Positions 3,705-56,777 of a stretch of DNA of 64,000 nucleotides are shown here, one piece after another. Every line of letters starts with the position of its first letter. The first letter of the stretch is position 1. The position numbers and the translations under genes are program-made. Origin of the DNA: an uncultured Candidatus Saccharibacteria bacterium (lineage in GTDB: Bacteria; Patescibacteriota; WWE3; UBA101185; UBA10185); contig CAZBAJ010000001.1 in assembly GCA_964490125.1 (NCBI GenBank), forward strand, positions 3,573-67,572, read 5' to 3'. The notes under the pieces were generated by a model. That model was not told where the DNA came from. It made no database searches and saw only the letters and a program-made list of their open reading frames with translations.

Positions 3705-4370
3705 ATGGATAAAGAGTTTTTACTTAAAGAAATTGAGAAGAGTATTAAAAGTTGCACCAAGTGTCGACTTTATAAAACCGCCACAAATGCCGTACCCGGT
3801 GAGGGAAATCCCAATAGCCAACTTGTATTTATAGGTGAGGCGCCAGGAGAAACCGAAGATCAAACCGGTCGACCTTTTGTGGGGCGGGCGGGGCGACTTT
3901 TGGAAACCTTACTTGCAAAAATCGGTTACAAGCGGGAAGATGTTTGGATTGGCAATATTATTAAGCACCGCCCGCCCCAAAACCGCGATCCGCTCCCCGA
4001 CGAAATCCTAGCCTGTCAACCTTACCTTGCCGAGCAACTAAAAATCATGTCGCCCAAACTTATTGTTACACTTGGTCGCTTTGCCTTGTCACACTTTTAT
4101 AGTGATGGTAAAATATCCCGTGATAAAGGAAATTTGATTCAAACTGCCAAGTTTAGCGTTTTTCCCGTTTATCACCCGGCGGCTGCTTTAAGAAGTCCAC
4201 AAATGTATAAAGACCTAGAAAACGATTTTTTAAAAATTCCGGCGGTTTTGGCAAATTTAGCCCTTACAAAAAATCTAAAACAGGGTAAACTAAATATGTC
4301 GACAAATTTGGAGAAAGGGAACAAGCAACCGTACGACAACGAGAAAGACGGTCAACAAAGACTTATATAG
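3705..4370 (+). CDS. uracil-DNA glycosylase, family 4
   Basis: CTKCRLYKTATNAVPGEGNPNSQLVFIGEAPGETED...GRAGRLL motif set typical of family-4 UDG; ATG at 3705 preferred over upstream TTG at 3690. Confidence 0.85.
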   Translation: MDKEFLLKEIEKSIKSCTKCRLYKTATNAVPGEGNPNSQLVFIGEAPGETEDQTGRPFVGRAGRLLETLLAKIGYKREDVWIGNIIKHRPPQNRDPLPDEILACQPYLAEQLKIMSPKLIVTLGRFALSHFYSDGKISRDKGNLIQTAKFSVFPVYHPAAALRSPQMYKDLENDFLKIPAVLANLALTKNLKQGKLNMSTNLEKGNKQPYDNEKDGQQRLI

Positions 4371-6103: not shown

Positions 6104-8367
6104 TGCCTAGAGGACGAAAAAAGTCGTTAAAATTTAAGCTAAAAGCGGATACCTTTAAATCCATTGTAGGGATCTTTTTTATTTTCTTTTCCGCCCTATC
6201 GTATGTGGCGTTTGTTCTGCCCGACTACTCCGTCAACAGTACCATTAACGCCGTTTATCGAAGATTTTTTGGTTACAGCGCGTATTTAATTCCGCTCCTC
6301 TTTTTATTTTCCGGTTTATTATTAGTAGGTTTTAGGTGGCGACTTTTGCAGGCGCGGATTTTTATTGGCATTTTGGCGGTAGCAATTTCGTCGTCCGCCT
6401 TACTGCATGTATTTTATTCCGGCAAAGAGGCGTACAAGGTGGCAGTTAGGGGCGACGGTGGGGGACTTATCGGCTATAAACTTTCTCAAGGGCTTTCCGA
6501 TGCCATTAGCACCTACGGCGCCTTTTTTGTTTTTGGCTTTATTTTGCTTGCCGGTGTGCTACTGCTTAGCGACATTTCCACCGAACGGGTAATTGAGTTT
6601 GTTAATAATCTGGTCGACAAAATAAAAGGTGTTAAAATGCCAAATTTAGGATTAAAGTTGCCCGCTTTAGCCAAAACCGCAATCTCCACCGTACCCGCTA
6701 CTATTATAGAGGCCGACGCAGTGGTTATAAATGAGGAACCAAAATCAGTCGCGTCTAAAGAAGTCGCACAAGAAACAAGCCCAGTGGAGATTTTACCCCC
6801 GCCGTCCGAACCCGCGTCGCAAAAACTAAACGGAGCTTTAATAACAACGGACAAGGGTAAAACGGAGCTTACCACTTTAGCCCCAACGGAAAAAGATCCA
6901 AGCAGTCTGCCTTATTCCAATAAGGTTTGGGAATACCCGCCCCACGACCTGTTGGTAGAAGCGCCTCATACCACCTTTGACACCAACGAAGTCAAACGCC
7001 GACAAAAAACCATAGAGGAAACCCTAAAAAGTTTTGGCATTCGCGTGGATCAGGCAGGCTACAATGTTGGACCAACCGTTACCCAGTACGCCTACAGTGT
7101 TCCGCCAGGCACCCGGATTGCCAAAATTAACAATTTGCAGGTAGATCTTGCCATGGCGCTTGAGTCCCCAACTGGTTCCGTGCGGTTAGAAATTCCTATT
7201 CCCGGGCGCAATGCTATTGGTGTGGAAGTCCCTAATTTAATAAAAAGTTTTGTCTATTTTAAGGATATTTTGGACAGCGACCAAATGAAGGCCATGAAGT
7301 CCAAAATCTCCGTGGGCCTGGGCAAAGATGTTGGTGGTATGGTGCGTACTTACGACATAGCCAAAATGCCTCACTTGTTAGTGGCGGGTGCTACGGGTTC
7401 GGGCAAATCAGTATTTTTGCACTCTATTTTGTTTTCCATTTTGTATCGGGCTAGTCCGCAAGAAGTCAAATTTATTTTAATCGACCCCAAAAGAGTAGAG
7501 CTACTTAATTATAATGGTATTCCACATTTAATTTCCCCGGTCATTACCGACATGGAAAAAGCCCCCAGTGCCTTTAGATGGGCGGTTAACGAGATGACCC
7601 GGAGGTATCAATTGTTTGAAAAAGCCCGCGCCCGCAACATAGACTCCTATAATGAAAAATCGGGTTTTCAGGCGCTACCGCACATTATTATAATGGTAGA
7701 CGAGCTGGCCGACTTAATGGTAGTAGATCCGGCATCGGTGGAGCACAGCATTGTGCGACTAAGTCAGCTTTCCCGCGCTACGGGTATTCATATGATTTTA
7801 ACCGTCCAACGCCCGTCCACAGATATTTTAACAGGTGTTATTAAAGCTAATATTCCTTGTCGCGCTGCGTTTAATGTTACTTCCCAAGTAGACTCGCGGG
7901 TTATTATTGACCAAGCCGGCGCAGAAAAATTAGTGGGTAGAGGGGATATGCTTTTTGTTCCGCCCGATGTCGCAAAGCCTATTAGAATTCAGGGTTGTTG
8001 GATTAGCGATGGGGAAATTGGCAAACTGGTGGACTGGTTAAGAAATACCGGCTTTATTCCGGATTATAAAGAAGAAGTTTTGGATACTCCGGATGAAGAA
8101 AAAAAGTCCGGGGCTACAATAGACGGTAAAGAGGTAGACGAAAGATACGAAGAAGCTAAAGATGTGGTTATAACTACCGGCAAAGCGTCCACCTCCTTTT
8201 TACAACGCCGGCTGTCTCTTGGTTACGCTAGGGCTGCCAGAATTATGGATCAACTTCAGGAAAATGGCGTAATTTCCGCGCAGGAAGCGGGTAGAGATCG
8301 CCAAGTTTTAATATCGTCAAACGGAAATAACAGGGATTTAGATTTTATTGACAATCTACCCGAGTAA
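6103..8367 (+). CDS. ftsK: DNA translocase FtsK/SpoIIIE
   Basis: N-terminal TM helices, GATGSGKSVFLHSIL Walker A, C-terminal gamma (wHTH) domain. Confidence 0.9.
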   Translation: MPRGRKKSLKFKLKADTFKSIVGIFFIFFSALSYVAFVLPDYSVNSTINAVYRRFFGYSAYLIPLLFLFSGLLLVGFRWRLLQARIFIGILAVAISSSALLHVFYSGKEAYKVAVRGDGGGLIGYKLSQGLSDAISTYGAFFVFGFILLAGVLLLSDISTERVIEFVNNLVDKIKGVKMPNLGLKLPALAKTAISTVPATIIEADAVVINEEPKSVASKEVAQETSPVEILPPPSEPASQKLNGALITTDKGKTELTTLAPTEKDPSSLPYSNKVWEYPPHDLLVEAPHTTFDTNEVKRRQKTIEETLKSFGIRVDQAGYNVGPTVTQYAYSVPPGTRIAKINNLQVDLAMALESPTGSVRLEIPIPGRNAIGVEVPNLIKSFVYFKDILDSDQMKAMKSKISVGLGKDVGGMVRTYDIAKMPHLLVAGATGSGKSVFLHSILFSILYRASPQEVKFILIDPKRVELLNYNGIPHLISPVITDMEKAPSAFRWAVNEMTRRYQLFEKARARNIDSYNEKSGFQALPHIIIMVDELADLMVVDPASVEHSIVRLSQLSRATGIHMILTVQRPSTDILTGVIKANIPCRAAFNVTSQVDSRVIIDQAGAEKLVGRGDMLFVPPDVAKPIRIQGCWISDGEIGKLVDWLRNTGFIPDYKEEVLDTPDEEKKSGATIDGKEVDERYEEAKDVVITTGKASTSFLQRRLSLGYARAARIMDQLQENGVISAQEAGRDRQVLISSNGNNRDLDFIDNLPE

Positions 8368-10196: not shown

Positions 10197-11336
10197 ATGA
10201 TAGCAAGAACCTTAGCTAAAGAACTTATAAACAAAGCAGAGAAGTACCCGGTGATTTCTGTAACAGGACCCAGACAGTCAGGCAAAACAACGCTAATTAA
10301 AAGCCTGTATCCGGGTTATTTGTATGCCAATTTAGAATATCCCGACATTAGGGAATTTGCCAAAACAGATCCCAGAAGATTTTTAAATCAGGCTAAAACC
10401 ATGATTGTGGACGAAGTGCAGTATGTACCTGATTTACTTGCATACATGCAGGGAAATGTAGATGAGGACAAAGACAGACAGTATGTAATTTCCGGCTCCC
10501 AGAACCTATTACTTTCCGCAAAAGTCTCCGAGTCTCTTGCCGGTAGGGTGTTTGTAGCCAACCTGTTGCCACTTACGCTAAACGAGTTAGCAAGCGTGAA
10601 CCTAACTGAACCCGATTTAGTGTCCCAGTTATTTAAAGGTTTCTACCCCAAGATTTACGACGAAAATTTGGACCCAGTGATGTGGTATCGAAATTATATT
10701 TTGACTTATTTGGAACGCGATGTTAGGGACATAAAGACTGTGGATAGCTTGTCCTCGTTTAGAAATTTTATGGCTTTGTTGGCAGGTAGAACGGGGCAGA
10801 TTTTGAACATGGCTTCATTAGCAAGCGACGCTGGAATAAGTGCACCCACAGCAAAAGCGTGGATTTCTATACTGGAGGCAAGTTACATAATTAGGATACT
10901 TCCGCCATATTATAACAATTGGAATAAGAGGGTAGTTAAAGCACCCAAAGTCCATTTTGTTGATACCGGATTAGTATGCGCTCTGCTTGGCATAAAAAGC
11001 ACCGTAGAATTGGCACACCACCCGCTAATCGGAAGTATTTTTGAATCCTATGTATTTTCTGAATATGTAAAACGAAAAGCCAATTTTGAACTAACCGCCG
11101 ATCTATATTTTTGGAAAGACAAATCTAATAAAGAGGTTGATATATTGTTGGAAGCTGGAAATATAACAGAAGCTATTGAAGTAAAATACGGTCAGACCAT
11201 AGCTTTGGAATATTTTGCTAACCTAGAAAGTTATAGATTTTTATCCGAGACGCCTGTGAAGACCAGCGTTGTGTACGGCGGGCAGGGAATACACGAACGA
11301 GGCAACCATGTAGTTTGCGGGTGGCGGGAATTTTAG
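10197..11336 (+). CDS. AAA+ ATPase with DUF4143-type C-terminal domain (COG1373 family)
   Basis: Walker A GPRQSGKTTL near N-terminus, architecture of the widespread ATPase/DUF4143 family. Confidence 0.8.
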   Translation: MIARTLAKELINKAEKYPVISVTGPRQSGKTTLIKSLYPGYLYANLEYPDIREFAKTDPRRFLNQAKTMIVDEVQYVPDLLAYMQGNVDEDKDRQYVISGSQNLLLSAKVSESLAGRVFVANLLPLTLNELASVNLTEPDLVSQLFKGFYPKIYDENLDPVMWYRNYILTYLERDVRDIKTVDSLSSFRNFMALLAGRTGQILNMASLASDAGISAPTAKAWISILEASYIIRILPPYYNNWNKRVVKAPKVHFVDTGLVCALLGIKSTVELAHHPLIGSIFESYVFSEYVKRKANFELTADLYFWKDKSNKEVDILLEAGNITEAIEVKYGQTIALEYFANLESYRFLSETPVKTSVVYGGQGIHERGNHVVCGWREF

Positions 11337-41828: not shown

Positions 41829-42243
41829 GTTTGACACAATTAAAGAGCTTAAACCCGTGTGGCATTTAATTGACGCTAAAGATATGGTGTTGGGTAGACT
41901 TGCTAAGCAGGTGGCGGACATATTAAACGGAAAAAACAGCGCACATTATTCCCCCAACCAATATTGTCAAGCCAAAGTTGTAGTTATAAATTCCGACAAA
42001 GTTGCGGTAACGGGTAAAAAGTTAACCGACAAACAGTACATTTGGCATACGGGTTTTCCCAAGGGTTTGCGGTTCCAAAGTCTTAAAGACGCCATGACAA
42101 AAGATTCTACTAAAGTTATCGAACGCGCGGTTAAAGGAATGTTACCTAAAAACCGGTTGCAAAAAAATAAAATGGCGGGGTTGTTTGTGTTTAAGGACGA
42201 AAACCACACTCATCAGGCAAATTTTGGAAAGGCTAGTAAATGA
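41815..42243 (+). CDS. rplM: 50S ribosomal protein L13
   Basis: WHLIDAKDMVLGRLA L13 signature. Confidence 0.9.
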   Translation: MQKTKFDTIKELKPVWHLIDAKDMVLGRLAKQVADILNGKNSAHYSPNQYCQAKVVVINSDKVAVTGKKLTDKQYIWHTGFPKGLRFQSLKDAMTKDSTKVIERAVKGMLPKNRLQKNKMAGLFVFKDENHTHQANFGKASK

Positions 42244-42671
42244 CTGCGGTAAAAACAAATAAAGACCAAAAAGATCAAGAAATTATTATTGCAACAGGTC
42301 GACGCAAGACAGCAGTTGCCTCCGTGTTTTTAAAAGTTGGTAAAGGCAAATTTACCGTAAACGATAAGCCAATTGATGAGTATTTTCCGCTTGAGCAAGA
42401 TAAAAACAGGTGGTTAAAGCCGTTTTTTGTGGCGGGTATTTCTAACCCAGAGCAGTCCTACGGCGCTACTATAAAAGTATTTGGGTCCGGCGGTACTGGT
42501 CAAATTGGGGCGGTAAGTTTGGCTTTAGCAAAAGCGTTGTGCAAACTTATGCCGGAAATGCGGTCACCGTTAAGAAAACAAGATCTATTAACTAGGGATT
42601 CCAGGATGGTAGAAAGAAAAAAGCCCTACTTGCGTAAGGCTCGTAAAGCTCCTCAATATTCCAAGCGTTAA
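42240..42671 (+). CDS. rpsI: 30S ribosomal protein S9
   Basis: GRRKTAVA...GGGxxGQ...PQYSKR C-terminus. Confidence 0.95.
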   Translation: MTAVKTNKDQKDQEIIIATGRRKTAVASVFLKVGKGKFTVNDKPIDEYFPLEQDKNRWLKPFFVAGISNPEQSYGATIKVFGSGGTGQIGAVSLALAKALCKLMPEMRSPLRKQDLLTRDSRMVERKKPYLRKARKAPQYSKR

Positions 42672-42676
42672 TACTT
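42619..42676 (+). repeat. direct repeat copy 1 (3' end of rpsI), partner at 44813..44870
   Basis: 58 nt, 54/58 identical to 44813..44870; all 4 differences are synonymous third-position changes. Confidence 0.85.
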
Positions 42677-42747
42677 AATGGTTGGTCTATCTTTAGAAAA
42701 ACTACTTACAAGCTAATATTATAGCATTAAAAATCAAAATTCTAGAC

Positions 42748-42783
42748 TTGTTTTTAGTTTAAAGCCTTTTATACTTTAATTCA
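42748..42783 (+). promoter_or_regulatory. promoter TTGTTT-16-TATACT for HelD-like gene, leaderless geometry
   Basis: -35 42748-53, -10 42770-75, ATG 42783; AT-rich junction DNA. Confidence 0.45.
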
Positions 42784-44795
42784 TGACCTACAAGGAAATA
42801 TATTCCTTTGAAAATAAGGTGCTTAAAGGTTTTATAGGTAGCATAGAAGAATTTATTAAAAATGAGGCTTTTGAGTTAGATAACATCTTAAAACAATATG
42901 AGAAGGAGTTTAGAAAGGTGAATGAAGGCTGGAATAATGAGGATAGAGCAGAAGCCATCTATTTAGCGAACGAACTGTTAAGACGAAACCTGTTTCAAGC
43001 TCGAACTTCTTATCTAGGTGCATTACGCACTACTGAAAATTCGCCATATTTTGCTCACATAGATATACTACACCAACCATCAGGAATGTTGGAGACCTTT
43101 TATTTAGGTAAGGTCGCTTATACTTCAAAAGATAAGGAAATAGCTATTACTGATTGGCGAAGCCCCGTAGCCTCACTGTATTACACTTACGCTTTTCCTA
43201 CCAAAAATGCAGAATACTCCGTTGTTGTAGATAAAGACCCCGTAGAGATAGAAAAATATGTCTGCGAGCTTGTGCTTAGAAGAGCAATAGACATTGAAAA
43301 CAAAAGGCTTGTTAATGTTTTTGATAGTGGGAATAAATTTATGCTTTCTAAAATTGAACAAAAAGCAGGCGGTTTGCTCGAGGATATTATTGAAACCATC
43401 CAGCTAGATCAAGATCTGATTATTCGCCTACCTTTATATAATAATATTATTGTCCAAGGTGTTGCAGGAAGCGGTAAAACAACCCTAGCTTTACACAGAG
43501 TTTCGTATCTTTTTTATAACTATGCCCGTTTACTTAAACCACAAAACACCTTGTTTCTGTCATCCTCAAAAACGCTTATAAACTATTTAGCCAAAAGCCT
43601 TCCTGGAATGGGTATAACTGATATTAATTGTTATTCCTTACGAGACTTTTTACTTAAAACTTTAGTAGAAAACGGTATTAAAGTTAAACCTCGTGCTCAA
43701 ATTCAGCCTATCGGAGACTTGGCTGAGTTTACAGATAAGTTTGATAACTTTTTGGATGCTACTGAGGTTAGATTGTTAGAAGATTTGGATTCAAGCTTAT
43801 TTGATAGATTTGCACTTAAAACTTACAACCTGAAACGCGCAAGGTCCCGCCTGACTTCAAAATCTTATATGGAAAAACTTGATACACTATCCAATGATTT
43901 AGCCGAGATGAATAAAGAGTTAAGATTGTATGATGACCCTGCAACGCAGTACGATGAGGCACGCATTCACGGTGTTAAAAAAACCATTAAGGTACTTAAA
44001 AACCAGCTCGATCCTGCTAAATTGTACAGCAATTTTTGTCTTTACGATTTGAGTTTAAATCACTTGTCTGCCTTATATCTATTGGCGGATAGATTAGGCG
44101 CCATTTCTTATAAGGATTACGATTTGGTCTTTGTGGATGAAGCTCAAGATTTTAATCCTCTACATTTAAGATGTATAAAAACACTCTCATCTAGGAATGT
44201 CTTTAATTTTTTTGGCGACTTAAATCAGGCAATTTACAGTAAAGATCACATTAAATCGTGGGACTGCATTTCTGATATGTATGGTATCAATAAATTGCAA
44301 CAATTTAGTCTTACCAGAAGCTACCGTTCAACTAAGAGCATAGTTTCTAAAGCCACGGATATATTAAGAGCAAAAGGAATTACTGATAATCTTCCTGAAC
44401 CCGTTTCTCGTACCGGAGAACCGACAATTGAACAAAGATTTGATCGTTTAGATAGCATGATGGCGACTCTTGTCGATGCTGTAAAACAGGTAAGAAAACA
44501 CAGAGCTAAGTCTATTGGCATCATCTGCTCGTCACAAAGTCAGGCTGATATTGTCAGCAGGCATTTTAGAGCTAAGGGGATGCAGTATTTTAGTATCACC
44601 GAAGGTTTCGACGATTACTCCAAATACGGCATTTTTATCGTAGCACCAAGCCTGGTTAAAGGGTTAGAATTTGACACCGTTTTTATTTTAGATGCCGGGG
44701 GCGGTGAGTTTGCTGATGTTGACGAGGGTCATTTTCGTAAATTTGTGGCAATGACGCGTGCAATGAGTAGCTTATACATATATAGCCTAAATTAA
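42783..44795 (+). CDS. UvrD-like SF1 helicase, HelD / helicase IV-like
   Basis: N-terminal domain with YFAHIDI and ITDWRSPVASLYY (HelD-type DWRAPIA.LYY motif); Walker A GVAGSGKTTLALHR; VFVDEAQDF; C-terminal RSYRST, VKGLEFD, MTRA motifs. Confidence 0.8.
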   Translation: MTYKEIYSFENKVLKGFIGSIEEFIKNEAFELDNILKQYEKEFRKVNEGWNNEDRAEAIYLANELLRRNLFQARTSYLGALRTTENSPYFAHIDILHQPSGMLETFYLGKVAYTSKDKEIAITDWRSPVASLYYTYAFPTKNAEYSVVVDKDPVEIEKYVCELVLRRAIDIENKRLVNVFDSGNKFMLSKIEQKAGGLLEDIIETIQLDQDLIIRLPLYNNIIVQGVAGSGKTTLALHRVSYLFYNYARLLKPQNTLFLSSSKTLINYLAKSLPGMGITDINCYSLRDFLLKTLVENGIKVKPRAQIQPIGDLAEFTDKFDNFLDATEVRLLEDLDSSLFDRFALKTYNLKRARSRLTSKSYMEKLDTLSNDLAEMNKELRLYDDPATQYDEARIHGVKKTIKVLKNQLDPAKLYSNFCLYDLSLNHLSALYLLADRLGAISYKDYDLVFVDEAQDFNPLHLRCIKTLSSRNVFNFFGDLNQAIYSKDHIKSWDCISDMYGINKLQQFSLTRSYRSTKSIVSKATDILRAKGITDNLPEPVSRTGEPTIEQRFDRLDSMMATLVDAVKQVRKHRAKSIGIICSSQSQADIVSRHFRAKGMQYFSITEGFDDYSKYGIFIVAPSLVKGLEFDTVFILDAGGGEFADVDEGHFRKFVAMTRAMSSLYIYSLN

Positions 44796-44812
44796 CTAAA
44801 CGCTTCTAATAC

Positions 44813-44870
44813 AAAAGCCCTACTTGCGTAAGGCTCGTAAAGCGCCCCAATACTCCAAGCGTTAACACTT
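44813..44870 (+). repeat. direct repeat copy 2 (degenerate duplicate of rpsI 3' end encoding KPYLRKARKAPQYSKR*)
   Basis: see copy 1; lies 18 nt after helicase stop. Confidence 0.85.
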
Positions 44871-44878
44871 ACCCAGAT

Positions 44879-45172
44879 TTAAATTAGCTTTTGCGACGAT
44901 AACATTCGCGTAAGCTCTTGTCTTAATTGGGAGAAACATTTTTCCAGCTCAATAACCCTTTGGTTGAGCAATATTCTATTGTCATTAGACATTTCCGTGA
45001 AACTGACATTAAACTCATTAGCAATCTGTGCTAAGACCCTAACTGTGGGAATAGCTCGACCTGTTTCGTACGCGGAAACGCTTTTTCCGGAGATGCCTAC
45101 TTTTTGTCCAAAGCGCTCCTGCGATAAATTTAGACTACACCTTAAATACTTAAGTTGATCACAAACATGCAT
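44879..45172 (-). CDS. XRE-family helix-turn-helix transcriptional regulator
   Basis: LSQERFGQKVGISGKSVSAYETGRAIPTVRVLAQIANEFNVS Cro/C1-type HTH. Confidence 0.75.
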   Translation of the reverse strand: MHVCDQLKYLRCSLNLSQERFGQKVGISGKSVSAYETGRAIPTVRVLAQIANEFNVSFTEMSNDNRILLNQRVIELEKCFSQLRQELTRMLSSQKLI

Positions 45173-45292
45173 ATTAACCTTTCCGGACAGGAAATTCTAT
45201 TGAAACTAGATGTCAAGATGTTGTCACATCTCTTAGGATTAATTATATTGCATACACACTTGTTATTTCAATATGAAAGGAGGTGAAAAAAT

Positions 45293-45877
45293 ATGACAAC
45301 CAGAAAATATGCAATAGGTCTTATGTCGTTAGCAATAGTGGCGGTTGGACTTATGGGTGTGGCGTATGCAGCTTTTACTGACCAGTCTAAGTTTACAGGT
45401 TCTAGGTTTAGCATAGCTAGTGCGGATATAAAGCTTCTCAACGACTTAGCAGGTGGTACAGGTGTGTCAAATCTTGTGGATACAAAACCGGTGCCTTCTT
45501 ACGATAATATTTCTCCGGGTTGGGTTTCTGACTATCTTGTTAAGTTGTACAACAATGGGACGCAGGCGGTAACTCTTACATCTAGCATGGATTATCTTAC
45601 GACAAATGATCCGTCAACCATTAGAGAGGTTTTGTATATGGAGCCGTATGACTGGAATGATGCAGATAACGACGGAGTGTTGGATGACGGGGAACAGGGT
45701 GTTTCTTGGGGCAGAAAGGCGTTTACGGCGTGGAAGACTACCGGGTTTAACTTTGGGCAACTAGACGCGGGAGTTGTTAAGCCGTTGATTATGAGATTTT
45801 CCGTGGGGAATGTTACTAACGCTAAGATGGGCGCGGTTGGAATCTTTGATTTTATGTTTGATTCGGTTGGCATTTAG
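45293..45877 (+). CDS. secreted TasA/camelysin-like protein with SipW-cognate-class signal peptide
   Basis: signal peptide then AYAAFTDQSKFTGSRFSIASADIKL resembling the AAF[ND]D...F..G motif of TasA/CalY; strong SD AAAGGAGGTGA; followed by sipW-like gene. Confidence 0.6.
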   Translation: MTTRKYAIGLMSLAIVAVGLMGVAYAAFTDQSKFTGSRFSIASADIKLLNDLAGGTGVSNLVDTKPVPSYDNISPGWVSDYLVKLYNNGTQAVTLTSSMDYLTTNDPSTIREVLYMEPYDWNDADNDGVLDDGEQGVSWGRKAFTAWKTTGFNFGQLDAGVVKPLIMRFSVGNVTNAKMGAVGIFDFMFDSVGI

Positions 45878-45908
45878 TTTGGTAGTTGGAGGTTACGCAA
45901 GGCGAATA

Positions 45909-45936
45909 GTTGTTTCCGGAACAACCTCTGCAGAGG
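45909..45936 (+). promoter_or_regulatory. two adjacent GC-rich hairpins between TasA-like gene and sipW-like gene (possible attenuator/processing site)
   Basis: GTTGTTTCCGGAACAAC imperfect palindrome and CCTCTGCAGAGG perfect 12-nt palindrome; no T-run. Confidence 0.3.
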
Positions 45937-46002
45937 CAAAGTCGTCAATTTGCTTACGCAGACCTGCCCGCTTTGTTTTAAGCCCTGAAGCAATCTACAA
46001 AT

Positions 46003-46554
46003 ATGTCTAAATTGTTTTTAAAAACTTTTGTTGGATTAGTCGTATTGGGTGGATTGGTTTATTACAGCGTGCAAAATAATGTCCGACTATTTTTTGTTGT
46101 TACGGGTTCCATGGAACCTGTGATTCCTACAAAGTCGATTATTTTATCTAGAAAAATTTCTGGAGACACCGTAAAAGCAGGTGCGGTTATTGTTTTTAAC
46201 GATCAAGCTACTAAACATGTTACGGCGCACAGAGTTAAGGAGGTTATAGCGGAAGGTTTTGTAACCAAAGGCGATGCCAACGAGTATCAGGATCGTAGTT
46301 TAGTCCAGCCAGCTGAATTGTTGGGGCGGGTATTTTTTGTCGTCCCTATTGTTGACGCTGTAAGCGTTTTCACCCAAGTCGGACTATTAATACTGATCTT
46401 TATGCTAGGTGTTTTAGTACGGAGATTTTTGGTATGCTTAAAGCATGGTTTTTCCTGTCCGACCGCAACACTTAACGCGCTTTTTAGACTTAGTGTTTTT
46501 AGGCGCCCCAAGGCGACTTTTTGTAATAGGTCGACGGGTTTTGGCGCTTACTAA
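46003..46554 (+). CDS. signal peptidase I, archaeal/ER type (SipW-like)
   Basis: VVTGSMEP (Ser), AHRV (His), KGDAN boxes of SipW-type peptidases; N- and C-terminal TM helices. Confidence 0.8.
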   Translation: MSKLFLKTFVGLVVLGGLVYYSVQNNVRLFFVVTGSMEPVIPTKSIILSRKISGDTVKAGAVIVFNDQATKHVTAHRVKEVIAEGFVTKGDANEYQDRSLVQPAELLGRVFFVVPIVDAVSVFTQVGLLILIFMLGVLVRRFLVCLKHGFSCPTATLNALFRLSVFRRPKATFCNRSTGFGAY

Positions 46555-49000
46555 TTATGAGACTTCGTTTAGCCTGCATCTGCGGTTGATTTTAACGCCG
46601 TTGTACGGGGATTATACCAAAGCCGGTAGAGTCATTGGTTTGGTTTTTAGGTTGCTGGCAATTTTTTACGGCCTCTTTGTTTTATTGTTTTTGGGTTTGG
46701 TAGTTTTGGTGTCGCCGTTGCTTTGGTATTTTGCTTTGTTTGGCGTATTTTATGTATTTAGATTGTGGGCGGTACTGGGTTTTATAGCGTTTTTTGCCTT
46801 GTGGTGGAAGTATACGCAAAATAAACCGACAAAGTTGGGAGAATATCGTCCGTGGGTAGCTGATGTCGTCCAAAATATTAAAATTAGGGGGAATTTAGAG
46901 GTTAGGGATTTTATTACTTCCCCGGTGCTTGCGGACTTTTTTAGTCGGTTGGAACTTACCAAAACCGATTTTGCTAACGAGCTTACCAAACTTTACTCCT
47001 ATGAGGAGTGCGTTAGACAAATATCTACTTGGGAAATTAAAGCCAAAGACTACTTACCAAAATTTGAGTCACTTTTTATAGAACCGGAGCAGGTGTTTTT
47101 GGCAGTTTTGTCGACCTTACCTAATTTAGAAAGATTTATGGCTAAGTACAATTTAATACTTAGCGACTTTGAAGGTTGCGCCAAGTGGTTAATAGAGCGG
47201 CGCGACGATAAGGAACGGGCGCATGTTTGGCAGGACTATTACAAACTGCCGGTAATGGGCGGAATTGGTAAGGGATTAACGGGCAGAGTAACGCCGGATC
47301 TGGACTCGGTGTCCACGGATTTTACCCAGTTAGTCAAAAAGGGTTTGGTAGAAAAAACCTATTGGCGTAAAGAGGAAATCAAGCGCGTAGCGGATCTTTT
47401 GGGTGGGTCTAACAGGAATGTGTTGATTGTAGGCGCACCCGGTGCCGGCAAAACCGGCATTGTTAAAGGCATTGCTTGGAGCGTAATTAGAGGAACGCAG
47501 TTTGACCAGTTAAAGTTTAAACGGATTGTAAGTTTAGAGGTCGGCAAGGTTCTGGCGGGAACAAAAAGCGCCGGAGATGTGGCGGACAAGCTTAAAAAAG
47601 CGGTGGAGGACGCTTTGGGCGCGGGTGATGTTATAATTTTTGTGGACGACATTCACACGCTTATTGCCGGTTCCGCGGTTGAGGATACCAAAACCAGCTC
47701 TGCCTACACTGTTCTTACTAATTATCTGGCGGATGGTCGGTTGCAATTTATTGGCGCCACCAACATAGAAAATTATCGTAAATATATAGAACCAAACGGT
47801 TCGTTTGCTCAGCTGTTTCAAATTGTCGAGGTCCCCCCGTCGTCCAAAGAAGAAACCTTAGAAATAATAAAAGTTAAAGCGGAAATTTTGGAGCAACAGT
47901 TTAAAGTCAAAACTTCCTTTACTGCGCTTACCAAAATTGTGGAGCTGGGTGACAAGCTAATTCACGAGCGGGTTTTTCCGGACAAAGCGGTGGAGATTTT
48001 AAATAGGTGCGTTTCGCAGGTTGCAAAAAGTACGCACTTTGTAACCGTCGATTTGGTTTTGCAAACGCTTTCAGAGATTACGCATATTCCGGTGTCGGCG
48101 GTTACTAACGATGAGTCGCAAAAACTGCTAAATATAGAAATGGAGATGAAAAAGCGGGTTATCGGCCAGGACGACGCCATAAACATGATAGGTTCGGCGC
48201 TTAAACGGGCGCGGGCGGGTATTAGAAACGATAAAAAACCCATGGCAAGCTTTTTGTTTGTGGGAACAACGGGCGTGGGAAAAACGGAAACGGCAAAAAC
48301 CTTGGCGCGGGTGTATTTTGGTGACGAAAAGCTAATGATTCGGCTTGATATGAGTGAGTATCAGCAGGTTGACAGTATTGACAGGCTAATTGGCGCGCCC
48401 AACGGTTCCACTAAAGGTGTGTTGACGGAGGCGGTTAGAAGTCGCCCATTTGCCCTAATTCTGTTGGACGAAATTGAAAAGGCGCACCAAAACATACTGT
48501 TGGCTTTTTTGCAGGTGTTGGACGACGGCAGACTAACGGATTCTTCTGGCACAACGGTTGATTTTACCAATACCATTATAATAGCAACCAGCAATGTGGG
48601 GACCCGGTCAATTCAGGAGGTTTTTGGCAGAAACGGCACTTTTGAGGAAATGAAGGAAGTTGCTACAAAGGATGTCCGGGAGAAATTTGCCCCGGAGTTT
48701 TTAAATAGGTTTAACGGGATTATCGTATACAAGCCGCTTTCTATGGAATCGGTTCAAAAAATTGCGGACATCATGCTTGGTAGTGTAAGAAAAATGGCGG
48801 AGGAAAAAGGCATTAAAGTTAGTTTTAAACCGGAGCTTATGGGGGAACTTTTAAAGCGCGGTTATAGCCCGGAGTGGGGCGCCCGGCCCATGGCGCGGGT
48901 AATAGAAGAAAGCGTTATGAACTATCTGGCCATTAAAATTTTGGCAAAGGAGATTGTGGCAGGCGATTCGGTGGAGTCAGGGACGGAGGTTTTTAGCTAG
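46541..49000 (+). CDS. membrane-anchored Clp/Hsp100-like ATPase with two AAA+ modules
   Basis: N-terminal multi-TM region replaces Clp N-domain; NBD1 LIVGAPGAGKTGIVKGIA..IFVDDIH; NBD2 LFVGTTGVGKTETAKTLA..LLDEIEKAH; sensor EFLNRFNGIIVYKPLS. Start uncertain: no in-frame ATG after sipW stop, so TTG 46541 or 46586 is assumed; ORF-track ATG at 46445 overlaps sipW by 110 nt. Confidence 0.75.
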   Translation: MALTNYETSFSLHLRLILTPLYGDYTKAGRVIGLVFRLLAIFYGLFVLLFLGLVVLVSPLLWYFALFGVFYVFRLWAVLGFIAFFALWWKYTQNKPTKLGEYRPWVADVVQNIKIRGNLEVRDFITSPVLADFFSRLELTKTDFANELTKLYSYEECVRQISTWEIKAKDYLPKFESLFIEPEQVFLAVLSTLPNLERFMAKYNLILSDFEGCAKWLIERRDDKERAHVWQDYYKLPVMGGIGKGLTGRVTPDLDSVSTDFTQLVKKGLVEKTYWRKEEIKRVADLLGGSNRNVLIVGAPGAGKTGIVKGIAWSVIRGTQFDQLKFKRIVSLEVGKVLAGTKSAGDVADKLKKAVEDALGAGDVIIFVDDIHTLIAGSAVEDTKTSSAYTVLTNYLADGRLQFIGATNIENYRKYIEPNGSFAQLFQIVEVPPSSKEETLEIIKVKAEILEQQFKVKTSFTALTKIVELGDKLIHERVFPDKAVEILNRCVSQVAKSTHFVTVDLVLQTLSEITHIPVSAVTNDESQKLLNIEMEMKKRVIGQDDAINMIGSALKRARAGIRNDKKPMASFLFVGTTGVGKTETAKTLARVYFGDEKLMIRLDMSEYQQVDSIDRLIGAPNGSTKGVLTEAVRSRPFALILLDEIEKAHQNILLAFLQVLDDGRLTDSSGTTVDFTNTIIIATSNVGTRSIQEVFGRNGTFEEMKEVATKDVREKFAPEFLNRFNGIIVYKPLSMESVQKIADIMLGSVRKMAEEKGIKVSFKPELMGELLKRGYSPEWGARPMARVIEESVMNYLAIKILAKEIVAGDSVESGTEVFS

Positions 49001-55601: not shown

Positions 55602-56777
55602 ATGTTAATAGAACTCTCCCCCGACCAAGATCTTGCCCGCAAGTTTATTATGGATTGGTACAACTCAAAAAGTCGCCCGCCGTACATTACTTTGGGAGGC
55701 TATGCGGGCACGGGCAAGACCACGCTCATTACTTATTTACGGCGCCAGCTCAAAGTCGACCATAAAAAGCTAAAAGTGGCGTTTTGTGCTTATACGGGCA
55801 AGGCCACGCAGGTTTTAAAACGCAAGCTGGCGGAGCATAACGCTGTGCATTTTGGCGACGAAGTGCGGACGATCCACTCGCTTATTTACAAAGCTATAAC
55901 GGACGAACATGGGTTTATTATTGGTTGGCGACGGCGGGACAGCCTGGACACGGAGCCTAATTTACTAATTGTAGACGAAGCAAGTATGGTTGATCAGGAA
56001 ATTTGGCAGGACTTACTTTCTTACCATGTACCTATTATAGCGGTGGGCGACCATGGTCAGCTTCCCCCCGTGTCGGGTGACTTTAACTTAATGCAAAACC
56101 CGCACTTGAAGTTGGAAAAAATCCATCGCCAGGCGGAGGAAAATCCAATTATTAAACTTTCTGTTATAGCACGGGAAACCGGTTTGATACCGCACGGTGA
56201 CTACGGCGACCATGTTTTTAAAGCAACGCCTGCTGATGCGTCCACCATGCTAGAAAACATTTTTTGTAACTTTTCTTCCGACCAGTTAGTTTTATGCGGT
56301 TATAATTCAACCAGGGTTAAGCTAAACGCCACAATAAGGAACGCCTTGGGTTTTGAAACGCCGGAACCGTACCCGGGTGACAGAGTGATTTGTCTGCGCA
56401 ACAATAGGCAAAAAGAGGTTTACAACGGGATGTTGGGGTACCTAGAGTATATTAATAGGCTGTCTAAAAATAAATACCTAATTGAGGTCGCCATGGATTC
56501 TTATGAAGAAGGTCATACCTATTCCGGAGTTGTTTCCGCGGAGCAGTTTGGCGCGCAAAAAACACTAAATAACATTTTAGGGTACGCAAAAACTAAGGAG
56601 ATGGACTTGTTTGACTTTGGGTACGCGCTTACAGTTCACAAAGCGCAGGGGAGTCAGGCAAAAAAGGTGGTGGTGTTTGAGGAGCGCTTTTCCCGCGACA
56701 CTGAAGAGGACTGGCGCCGTTGGCTGTACACCGCTGTCACCCGCGCGGAGGAGGAACTTTTAATTGTAGGGAATTAA
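55602..56777 (+). CDS. RecD/Dda-like SF1B DNA helicase
   Basis: GGYAGTGKTTL Walker A, LLIVDEASMV Walker B, C-terminal ...VTRAEEELLIV. Confidence 0.8.
   Translation: MLIELSPDQDLARKFIMDWYNSKSRPPYITLGGYAGTGKTTLITYLRRQLKVDHKKLKVAFCAYTGKATQVLKRKLAEHNAVHFGDEVRTIHSLIYKAITDEHGFIIGWRRRDSLDTEPNLLIVDEASMVDQEIWQDLLSYHVPIIAVGDHGQLPPVSGDFNLMQNPHLKLEKIHRQAEENPIIKLSVIARETGLIPHGDYGDHVFKATPADASTMLENIFCNFSSDQLVLCGYNSTRVKLNATIRNALGFETPEPYPGDRVICLRNNRQKEVYNGMLGYLEYINRLSKNKYLIEVAMDSYEEGHTYSGVVSAEQFGAQKTLNNILGYAKTKEMDLFDFGYALTVHKAQGSQAKKVVVFEERFSRDTEEDWRRWLYTAVTRAEEELLIVGN

Follow-up and report, generated by a model that had tools for sequence, protein, structure and literature searches.

Layout of the rpsI/XRE junction

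The junction considered here lies in a 64,000-nucleotide (nt) stretch of a WWE3 genome of the Patescibacteria (contig CAZBAJ010000001.1 of assembly GCA_964490125.1), the whole of which we call the window, and it carries a single helD-like helicase gene inserted between the ribosomal protein gene rpsI and a convergent regulator gene. A large block of ribosomal and RNA polymerase (RNAP) genes runs along the + strand of the window, from rpoB and rpoC through infA-rpsM-rpsK-rpsD-rpoA-rplQ-rplM-rpsI. The rpsI gene (42240..42671, + strand), last of the run rpoA-rplQ-rplM-rpsI, is intact and codes for ribosomal protein S9 of 143 amino acids (aa), an assignment supported by the Pfam Ribosomal_S9 model (E 2e-39) and by synteny in 24 related loci. 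Beyond it come the helD-like gene (42783..44795, + strand), coding for a 670-aa protein that resembles a compact Class I HelD, and, on the opposite strand, a 97-aa helix-turn-helix (HTH) gene of the XRE family (44879..45172, - strand; Pfam HTH_3 and synteny).

A repeat scan of the window reveals a single outstanding direct repeat, 42614-42677 versus 44808-44871, which is 64 nt long with 91% identity. An initial reading of the window made from its letters alone (the sequence-only reading) had proposed that its core, 42619-42676 and 44813-44870, is identical at 54 of 58 nt, and our alignment confirms this. The first 31 nt of the core are exact and occur just twice in the 64-kb window; no match to them was seen in 100 shuffles, even with 3 mismatches allowed, so the repeat is non-random. 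Copy 1, which is attL-like (42619..42676, + strand), forms the 3' end of rpsI and comprises the last 16 codons, the stop codon and 5 nt, with the aligned repeat reaching 42677 and thus extending 6 nt beyond the rpsI stop into non-coding DNA. Copy 2, which is attR-like (44813..44870, + strand), is an orphan rpsI 3' fragment that begins 17 nt past the helD stop, rather than the 18 nt first counted, and ends 8 nt short of the XRE stop. Translated, each copy reads KPYLRKARKAPQYSKR-stop. The repeat hence flanks the insert and contains the rpsI 3' end, and the target gene itself is unbroken.

Between the copies lies a cassette of 2.14 kb (42678-44812), made up of a predicted promoter, the helD gene and a 17-nt tail. 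Its sole open reading frame (ORF) of at least 110 aa is that of helD (42783-44795, 670 aa), the others listed being antisense and 56-70 aa long. The view that everything between the copies is one UvrD-like superfamily 1 (SF1) helicase gene is borne out, with Pfam matches to UvrD-helicase and UvrD_C. The gene had also been called AT-rich, which is real but modest: its GC content is 0.367 (0.325 at third codon positions, GC3) against 0.421 for the window, and composition is a weak proof of foreign origin, since secY is equally AT-rich (GC3 0.322). An Rfam search of the window returned no RNA family.

The arrangement is recovered in independent data. Logan contigs are a k=31 assembly, in which breaks inside the repeat are expected; one such contig (L009, 99.97% identical) runs from rpoA-rplQ-rplM-rpsI through copy 1 into the helicase. 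Three others (L001-L003) cover the helicase into copy 2, with L001 and L002 starting from copy 1, and four (L010-L013) reach copy 2 from the XRE side, with L010 and L013 ending at the 31-nt exact core. Because the independent contig L009 spans rpsI, copy 1 and the helicase, the repeat-helD structure is not an assembly artefact. A 29-nt terminal overlap of L001, considered as a sign of a circle, is explained by the 31-mer repeat in a k=31 graph.

Empty sites and a second repeat-flanked insert in related genomes

A search with RpsI, taking one genome per species, gave 20 Patescibacteria/WWE3 loci, and 3 further species, present as five contigs, were reached via a 194-aa protein encoded close to the junction; the related set comprises 24 genome loci and a metagenome contig from JGI (L045). 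In 19 of the 20 loci of the RpsI search, rpoA-rplQ-rplM-rpsI is followed by the convergent XRE gene, and most of these continue with the 194-aa protein, in some cases an S26-like peptidase, and then ClpB; L029, the remaining locus, is a contig of 1.8 kb on which the sequence stops 190 nt beyond rpsI. No helicase was found at rpsI in any of the 24 related WWE3 genome loci, nor in L045. Instead, rpsI abuts XRE in 22 of the 24, with a gap of -5 to 151 nt in 17 of the RpsI-search set, and the three extra species found via the 194-aa protein likewise have an empty site. The XRE gene, being the immediate neighbor of rpsI in related genomes, marks the right flank of that site. The closest comparison is offered by L045, which comes from a near relative and aligns to 41878-42677 and then contiguously to 44813-45287; that is, it equals the window minus 42678-44812. 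It has a single repeat copy, with TAACAC after the rpsI stop, as in copy 2.

Since 22 of the 24 loci and L045 show rpsI next to XRE, the last with one repeat copy, the ancestral state by this comparison is rpsI abutting XRE, with copy 2 marking the original downstream flank. The search among related genomes that the sequence-only reading had proposed thus finds empty sites, and helD is not ancestral at rpsI. The converse, that helD was ancestral at rpsI and was lost elsewhere, or that the locus is mis-assembled, could draw on the k=31 contigs that break at the repeat and on nothing beyond; against it stand the lack of helD in the 24 loci and L045, the flanking repeat, which itself marks an insertion, and the independent contig that spans rpsI, copy 1 and helD at 99.97%. 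We find it scarcely credible.

Within the source species all Logan contigs break in the repeat, and two from sister strains (L011 and L012) have copy-1-like bases beside XRE, a state that fits an empty site, gene conversion or mixed strains. The four XRE-side contigs (L010, L011, L012 and L013; equivalents of 44814-48995), which stem from other samples, encode an identical XRE protein and have 95.3 to 99.7% nucleotide identity to the window, unlike the retrieved helicase contigs, every one of which is 99.95% identical to it. The 90% protein cluster of the helicase holds 2 sequences among 15 billion proteins, namely the NCBI protein of the window and a Logan variant with one residue changed (P0001); an exact look-up of the window helicase gave no match. 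Given that the helicase contigs are all 99.95% identical and that this cluster has two members, the more diverged strains represented by the XRE-side contigs may be without the insert.

The differences between the two copies had been described as synonymous third-position changes in all four cases. This holds for three (GCT>GCG, CCT>CCC and TAT>TAC), a 3/3 outcome with P ~0.012 under random mutation, but not for the fourth, which falls after the stop codon (TAA-TAC versus TAA-CAC). From the same pattern it had been proposed that copy 2 came from the functional rpsI of a related lineage. That origin is not established: four outgroups (L045, L014, L047 and L048) assign two derived changes to each copy, and L011 and L012 have their copy-1-like bases beside XRE. 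We consequently set aside the synonymous-only argument for a foreign copy 2, whose P of ~0.012 is offset by the two-and-two split, since neither copy can be picked out as foreign from this pattern; gene conversion or polymorphism would explain the differences as well.

A second, unrelated insert is found at the same place in the locus L014. It is 430 nt long, has no similarity to the window insert, and is bracketed by a degenerate repeat of the genome's own rpsI tail, the left boundary of which falls at the same Lys-Pro-Tyr codons as that of the window repeat; its orphan repeat bears an in-frame 9-nt deletion of one RKA unit. The insert (L014 6391-6822) encodes a hydrophobic ORF of 44-46 aa (MSYDDQMGGMIEGGFLGVIGALVVLVVLDYFHW...) with its own predicted TGGTATAAT promoter (extended -10) and a GGAGG Shine-Dalgarno (SD) sequence. 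The RpsI of L014 is 74% identical to that of the window, and L014 is no closer to the window than are the empty-site genomes L046-L048. In both genomes the orphan copy resembles the genome's own rpsI; because of this, the window and L014 events would be independent, or else their copies were kept alike by gene conversion.

The same resemblance bears on another origin of the repeat, a long target-site duplication in which a linear fragment was ligated into the rpsI/XRE junction between nicks staggered by ~58 nt, which were then filled in. Both copies would then derive from the host, and their differences would have arisen later, with only synonymous ones tolerated in the functional copy. The likeness of copy 2 to its own copy 1 in the window and in L014 agrees with this origin, and the copy-1-like bases beside XRE in L011 and L012 fit copies that were initially identical. 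However, by comparison with the outgroups, two derived changes, each at a third codon position, fall in the non-functional copy, and the features of a transposon are missing from the insert, which has no transposase ORF and no inverted repeats at its ends. The duplication, moreover, measures 58 bp, and target duplications of about that length are far longer than those usually reported. We consider an origin of this kind quite improbable.

HelD identity and predicted promoter of the cargo

Profile and structure comparisons place the product of the cargo gene in the HelD family. In Pfam the protein matches UvrD-type domains only; in NCBIfam its best model is HelD_BACSU (E 3.7e-71), with HelR and HelD_MYCSM next and UvrD, PcrA and Rep far lower. 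The best sequence matches in the PDB are Bacillus subtilis HelD (6wvk_H, 5e-42) and then Mycobacterium smegmatis HelD (6yxu_H), and these alignments include the HelD-specific N-terminal domain, with DWRSP (124-128) opposite the DWRAP of 6wvk_H. Examination of a 56-sequence alignment shows that D124, W125, R126, P128, the Walker A motif (226-233) and DEAQD (452-456) are invariant. Consistent with this, the DWR Trp-cage motif (here 124-126) is described as absolutely conserved in the N-terminal domain specific to HelD (PMC8655204).

An AlphaFold2 model built on the same alignment (pLDDT 88.9, pTM 0.89) predicts an N-terminal helical hairpin of helices 3-47 and 52-84, which would form a coiled-coil arm (3-84), and an all-helical arm insert (~297-447) that splits domain 1A between Walker A and DEAQD. 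The model fits the HelD layout of a 1A domain divided by a clamp-arm-like insertion, with no 1B/2B domains of the UvrD type. At the tip of the coiled coil, E53-D54 falls opposite the acidic DEPDD of Bacillus HelDs in the alignment. In a Foldseek search with the model the top 7 matches are chains of HelD-RNAP complexes (E 1e-32 to 1e-25), with UvrD and PcrA ranking lower (1e-17); the full-length alignment to 6wvk_H has an E of 2.6e-32 and a TM score of 0.60. The HelD-type N-terminal motif noticed in the sequence-only reading is therefore matched by HelD-specific N-terminal homology in both the profile search and the structure model, and the characters found here are those by which published work defines HelD (PMC8655204). 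Taken by its sequence, the cargo is a member of the HelD family but not a B. subtilis equivalog.

The predicted protein shares with B. subtilis HelD (YvgS; PDB 6WVK and 6ZCA) the DWR(A/S)P motif, an antiparallel coiled coil at the N terminus whose tip is acidic, and a UvrD-like 1A/2A motor that contains Walker A and DEAQD and has its 1A domain interrupted by a helical arm. It differs from it in its low identity (~21-25%), its shorter arm, its Patescibacteria host and its predicted leaderless mRNA. A survey of HelD proteins describes Classes I-III, in Firmicutes/Bacteroides, Actinobacteria and Deltaproteobacteria, with Patescibacteria not mentioned, and already documents horizontal transfer of helD (PMC8655204). 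The window protein and its relatives extend HelD to the candidate phyla radiation, in the form of a compact clade with conserved leaderless promoters as predicted below.

The sequence-only reading had left room for a defense helicase, and we weighed the possibility that the gene encodes an anti-phage helicase (Gabija GajB-like or associated with a defense reverse transcriptase, DRT) on a defense islet, rather than an RNAP recycling factor. PADLOC does return GajB and reverse transcriptase (RT)-associated helicase matches (E 1e-16 to 1e-8), and the gene is horizontally acquired, at a variable junction, with an XRE gene adjoining. These matches fall mainly on the generic UvrD core (residues ~350-670), however, whereas the HelD models are far better (E 4e-71) and take in the HelD-specific N-terminal domain; the fold search likewise puts seven HelD-RNAP structures first. 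Furthermore, no GajA, RT or nuclease partner ORF is present in the insert, and the XRE gene is ancestral to the site and lies outside it. A defense role is hence not supported, and we regard it as very unlikely.

Beyond the two-member cluster, the next relatives of the helicase are 35-41% identical and all belong to Patescibacteria. Their genes occur in two fixed contexts, uvrB<>helD...lexA or tgt<>helD><rpmE. Because the orthologues sit in conserved chromosomal contexts elsewhere, the window helD is, on this comparative evidence, displaced relative to them; and given the 2-member cluster and a next relative at 41% identity, its acquisition is to all appearances phylogenetically narrow. Phage and plasmid collections contain distant HelD genes only, at most 34% identical, and a search of IMG/VR with the window helicase gave no match. 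The adjacency to rpoA, which had seemed striking at first, appears incidental, as the orthologues adjoin uvrB/lexA or tgt/rpmE; it looks like a by-product of the position of the site. Three orthologues have helD transcribed divergently from uvrB with lexA nearby, and this neighborhood hints at a role of helD in the DNA-damage response or its regulation.

Upstream of the window helD lies a promoter-like region (42744..42775, + strand) with the conserved AGACTTGT, a -35-like TTGTTT (42748-42753), a 16-nt spacer and TATACT (42770-42775), the last being 7 nt from the ATG, and there is no SD sequence before this ATG. All six Patescibacteria helD genes present the same geometry: AG(A/T)CTTGT ~33 nt upstream of the start, a -10-like hexamer 16-17 nt further on, 6-8 nt from there to the start, and no SD (window 42744-42782; L041 ~2088-2123; L042 ~3998-4033; L043 ~7965-8000; also L004 and L005). 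A generic promoter scan did not list the helD promoter, whose -35 matches at just 3 of 6 positions. The leaderless promoter suggested from the window alone is thereby given comparative support by five orthologues. Since the six share boxes and spacing without an SD, the cassette probably brought the clade's own promoter with it, a promoter that is probably leaderless, and leaderless expression seems to be a trait of the helD clade. Read-through from the rpoA-rplQ-rplM-rpsI operon is also possible, because the terminator scan predicts no + strand terminator between rpsI and helD.

Integration at the rpsI 3' end

With a confidence slightly above even, we lean towards an account in which the insert is an att-flanked, integrase-less cassette, similar to a cis-mobilizable element (CIME), that integrated at the rpsI 3' end and carries a helD acting as in Bacillus. 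According to this account, a single narrow lineage of WWE3/Patescibacteria would have gained the 2.14-kb single-gene cassette in its chromosome at the rpsI/XRE junction. Integration through a recombination site ~58 bp long and coincident with the rpsI 3' end would have left rpsI intact on one side (copy 1) and an orphan tail on the other (copy 2). The crossover would have been made site-specifically between this site and a circular intermediate, by a recombinase encoded outside the cassette that acted in trans or has since been lost. Once in place, helD would rely on its own leaderless promoter for expression, possibly supplemented by operon read-through. As in Bacillus, its N-terminal coiled coil would enter the RNAP secondary channel and its helical arm would open the RNAP clamp, with ATP hydrolysis freeing the stalled polymerase. 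The repeats that contain the target 3' end, the intact rpsI, the exact empty sites and the boundary shared with L014 are the reasons for proposing site-specific integration of a circular element.

This kind of site has precedents. The rpsI 3' end is a target of integrative and mobilizable elements (IMEs) and integrative and conjugative elements (ICEs) with tyrosine integrases in streptococci, some of these elements having long direct repeats, and the term CIME denotes an att-flanked element devoid of an integrase (PMC5357655, PMC4701971, PMC5704250). The window element is like the streptococcal rpsI elements (e.g. IMESag-rpsI) in using the same gene end, in having repeats that include the rpsI 3' end, in leaving the gene intact and in the reuse of the site, and it is like CIMEs in keeping attL and attR with the integrase absent. 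In contrast to IMESag-rpsI (~9 kb, 13 ORFs), it measures 2.1 kb with one cargo gene, and unlike streptococcal IMEs and ICEs it has no integrase, relaxase or other element gene in the insert and belongs to a different phylum. The absence of an element integrase excludes membership among IMEs or ICEs and is compatible with CIME-like status. By logic only, a single gene with a short recombination site, a recombinase elsewhere and different cassettes at one site would also recall integron cassettes; the window, however, offers no attC-like family of imperfect palindromes, no intI and no attI, and the insert has a predicted promoter of its own and is bordered by a duplicated segment of a host gene.

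Seen in this light, the event is an ordinary one, an integrative islet with a known protein family at a known type of integration site; what is new is the phylum, the minimal format of a single gene without an integrase, and the occurrence of a second, independent cargo at this site. It would extend the rpsI-3' integration of streptococcal IMEs/ICEs to a distant phylum in minimal form. The locus would also show a genome-reduced Patescibacteria lineage gaining an accessory transcription factor with neither neighbor disrupted. Should a recombinase acting in trans exist, the 58-bp site could become a genetic tool for organisms that now have none.

Several observations weigh against the CIME-like account. 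The sequence-only reading had advised looking for an integrase elsewhere; Pfam searches detect no integrase or recombinase in the insert, and no Phage_integrase or Resolvase match among ten window ORFs chosen by size, the rest of the window ORFs being unscanned. The Logan contigs give no direct sign of excision, of an attP junction or of a circular form, and IMG/VR, queried with one specific and two degenerate rpsI-tail att patterns, returned no element. Reuse of the rpsI site by different cargo is seen in one additional case, L014, so that just two repeat-flanked cases are known, and a third insert at the rpsI/XRE junction, 2.6 kb long and in another WWE3-like MAG (L024 6397-8970; ORFs of 574 aa and 202 aa on the - strand, the latter apparently membrane-spanning), has neither a flanking repeat nor a Pfam domain. 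The composition of helD is just mildly atypical. As for a function like that in Bacillus, the protein scores 240 bits, which falls short of the 419-bit NCBIfam equivalog cut-off of HelD_BACSU, and its arm insert is 152 aa against ~240 in Bacillus, about 90 aa shorter.

The sequence-only reading had proposed site-specific or homology-guided integration at a gene 3' end. Insertion at the rpsI 3' end is supported, and no recombinase was found, in the insert or the ten window ORFs scanned, by which to choose between the two. Homology-guided integration would need no dedicated recombinase: either a circularized fragment integrated by a RecA single crossover of the Campbell type, or, after natural transformation, homology-facilitated illegitimate recombination took place, in which a donor 'rpsI-helD' was anchored in the ribosomal operon and its far end joined 58 nt upstream of the recipient rpsI stop. 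Both versions yield a complete rpsI, helD and an orphan rpsI tail. Patescibacteria commonly carry competence and type IV pilus genes, and the ribosomal operon offers long conserved homology. The lack of an integrase in the cassette and in the ten window ORFs scanned agrees with such a route, as does the restriction of the copy differences to synonymous and non-coding sites, a pattern to be expected of a copy derived from a related, functional rpsI. Conversely, no donor with helD next to rpsI occurs among the 24 related loci, the orthologues lying elsewhere; the independent L014 insert shares the left repeat boundary, unlike random illegitimate joins; and 58 bp is short for an efficient RecA crossover. 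Homology-guided integration is, in our estimate, rather unlikely.

An imperfect palindrome, AGCCCTA-CTTGCG-TAAGGCT, makes up the left part of the repeat; on the - strand it is predicted by a terminator scan and by folds of 20 loci to form a hairpin with a U-run inside the coding end of rpsI (42621..42642). A second hairpin copy (44815..44836, - strand) lies directly downstream of XRE, with its U-run weakened to UUGUAUU. A similar minus-strand hairpin with a U-run is predicted in most WWE3 loci, at the rpsI end ERKKPYLRKA (equivalent positions in L015-L033 and L045). In the ancestral state, with the site empty, this hairpin probably served the convergent XRE gene as a terminator lying within rpsI. 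One may speculate that the orphan copy 2 is retained because it keeps the hairpin next to XRE; equally speculative is the thought that the hairpin or palindrome could serve as the core site of a recombinase. A bolder proposal builds on the latter, namely that the rpsI 3' end in the WWE3 clade is a dedicated capture site, where promoter-bearing single genes, such as helD in the window and the membrane peptide of 44-46 aa in L014, are inserted and swapped by a chromosomal, trans-acting recombinase that recognizes the tail hairpin or palindrome. We rate this as improbable; were it true, a ribosomal protein gene would be the base of an integron-like platform for gene acquisition in the ultra-small genomes of Patescibacteria.

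The genes to the right of the junction form a conserved neighborhood of their own. Directly after the rpsI operon, ~24 WWE3 loci have a triad of an XRE regulator, a 194-aa secreted protein and a SipW-like signal peptidase, the last detectable in about half of them. In the window the triad spans 44879-46554, with XRE on the - strand, the 194-aa ORF at 45293-45877 and the S26/S24-like peptidase at 46003-46554, and it is also seen in L014-L033 and L046-L050. One homologue of the 194-aa protein is named in JGI a 'peptide with SipW-like signal peptide', and another matches Pfam PF12389. The layout recalls sinR/tasA/sipW of B. subtilis, and the triad might encode a surface fiber system. Further away, a DUF4143/AAA_14 ATPase gene (10197-11336) lies just upstream of the rpoB-rpoC block, and downstream the window encodes a RecD/PIF1-like SF1 helicase of 391 aa (55602-56777), which is present in L048 too.

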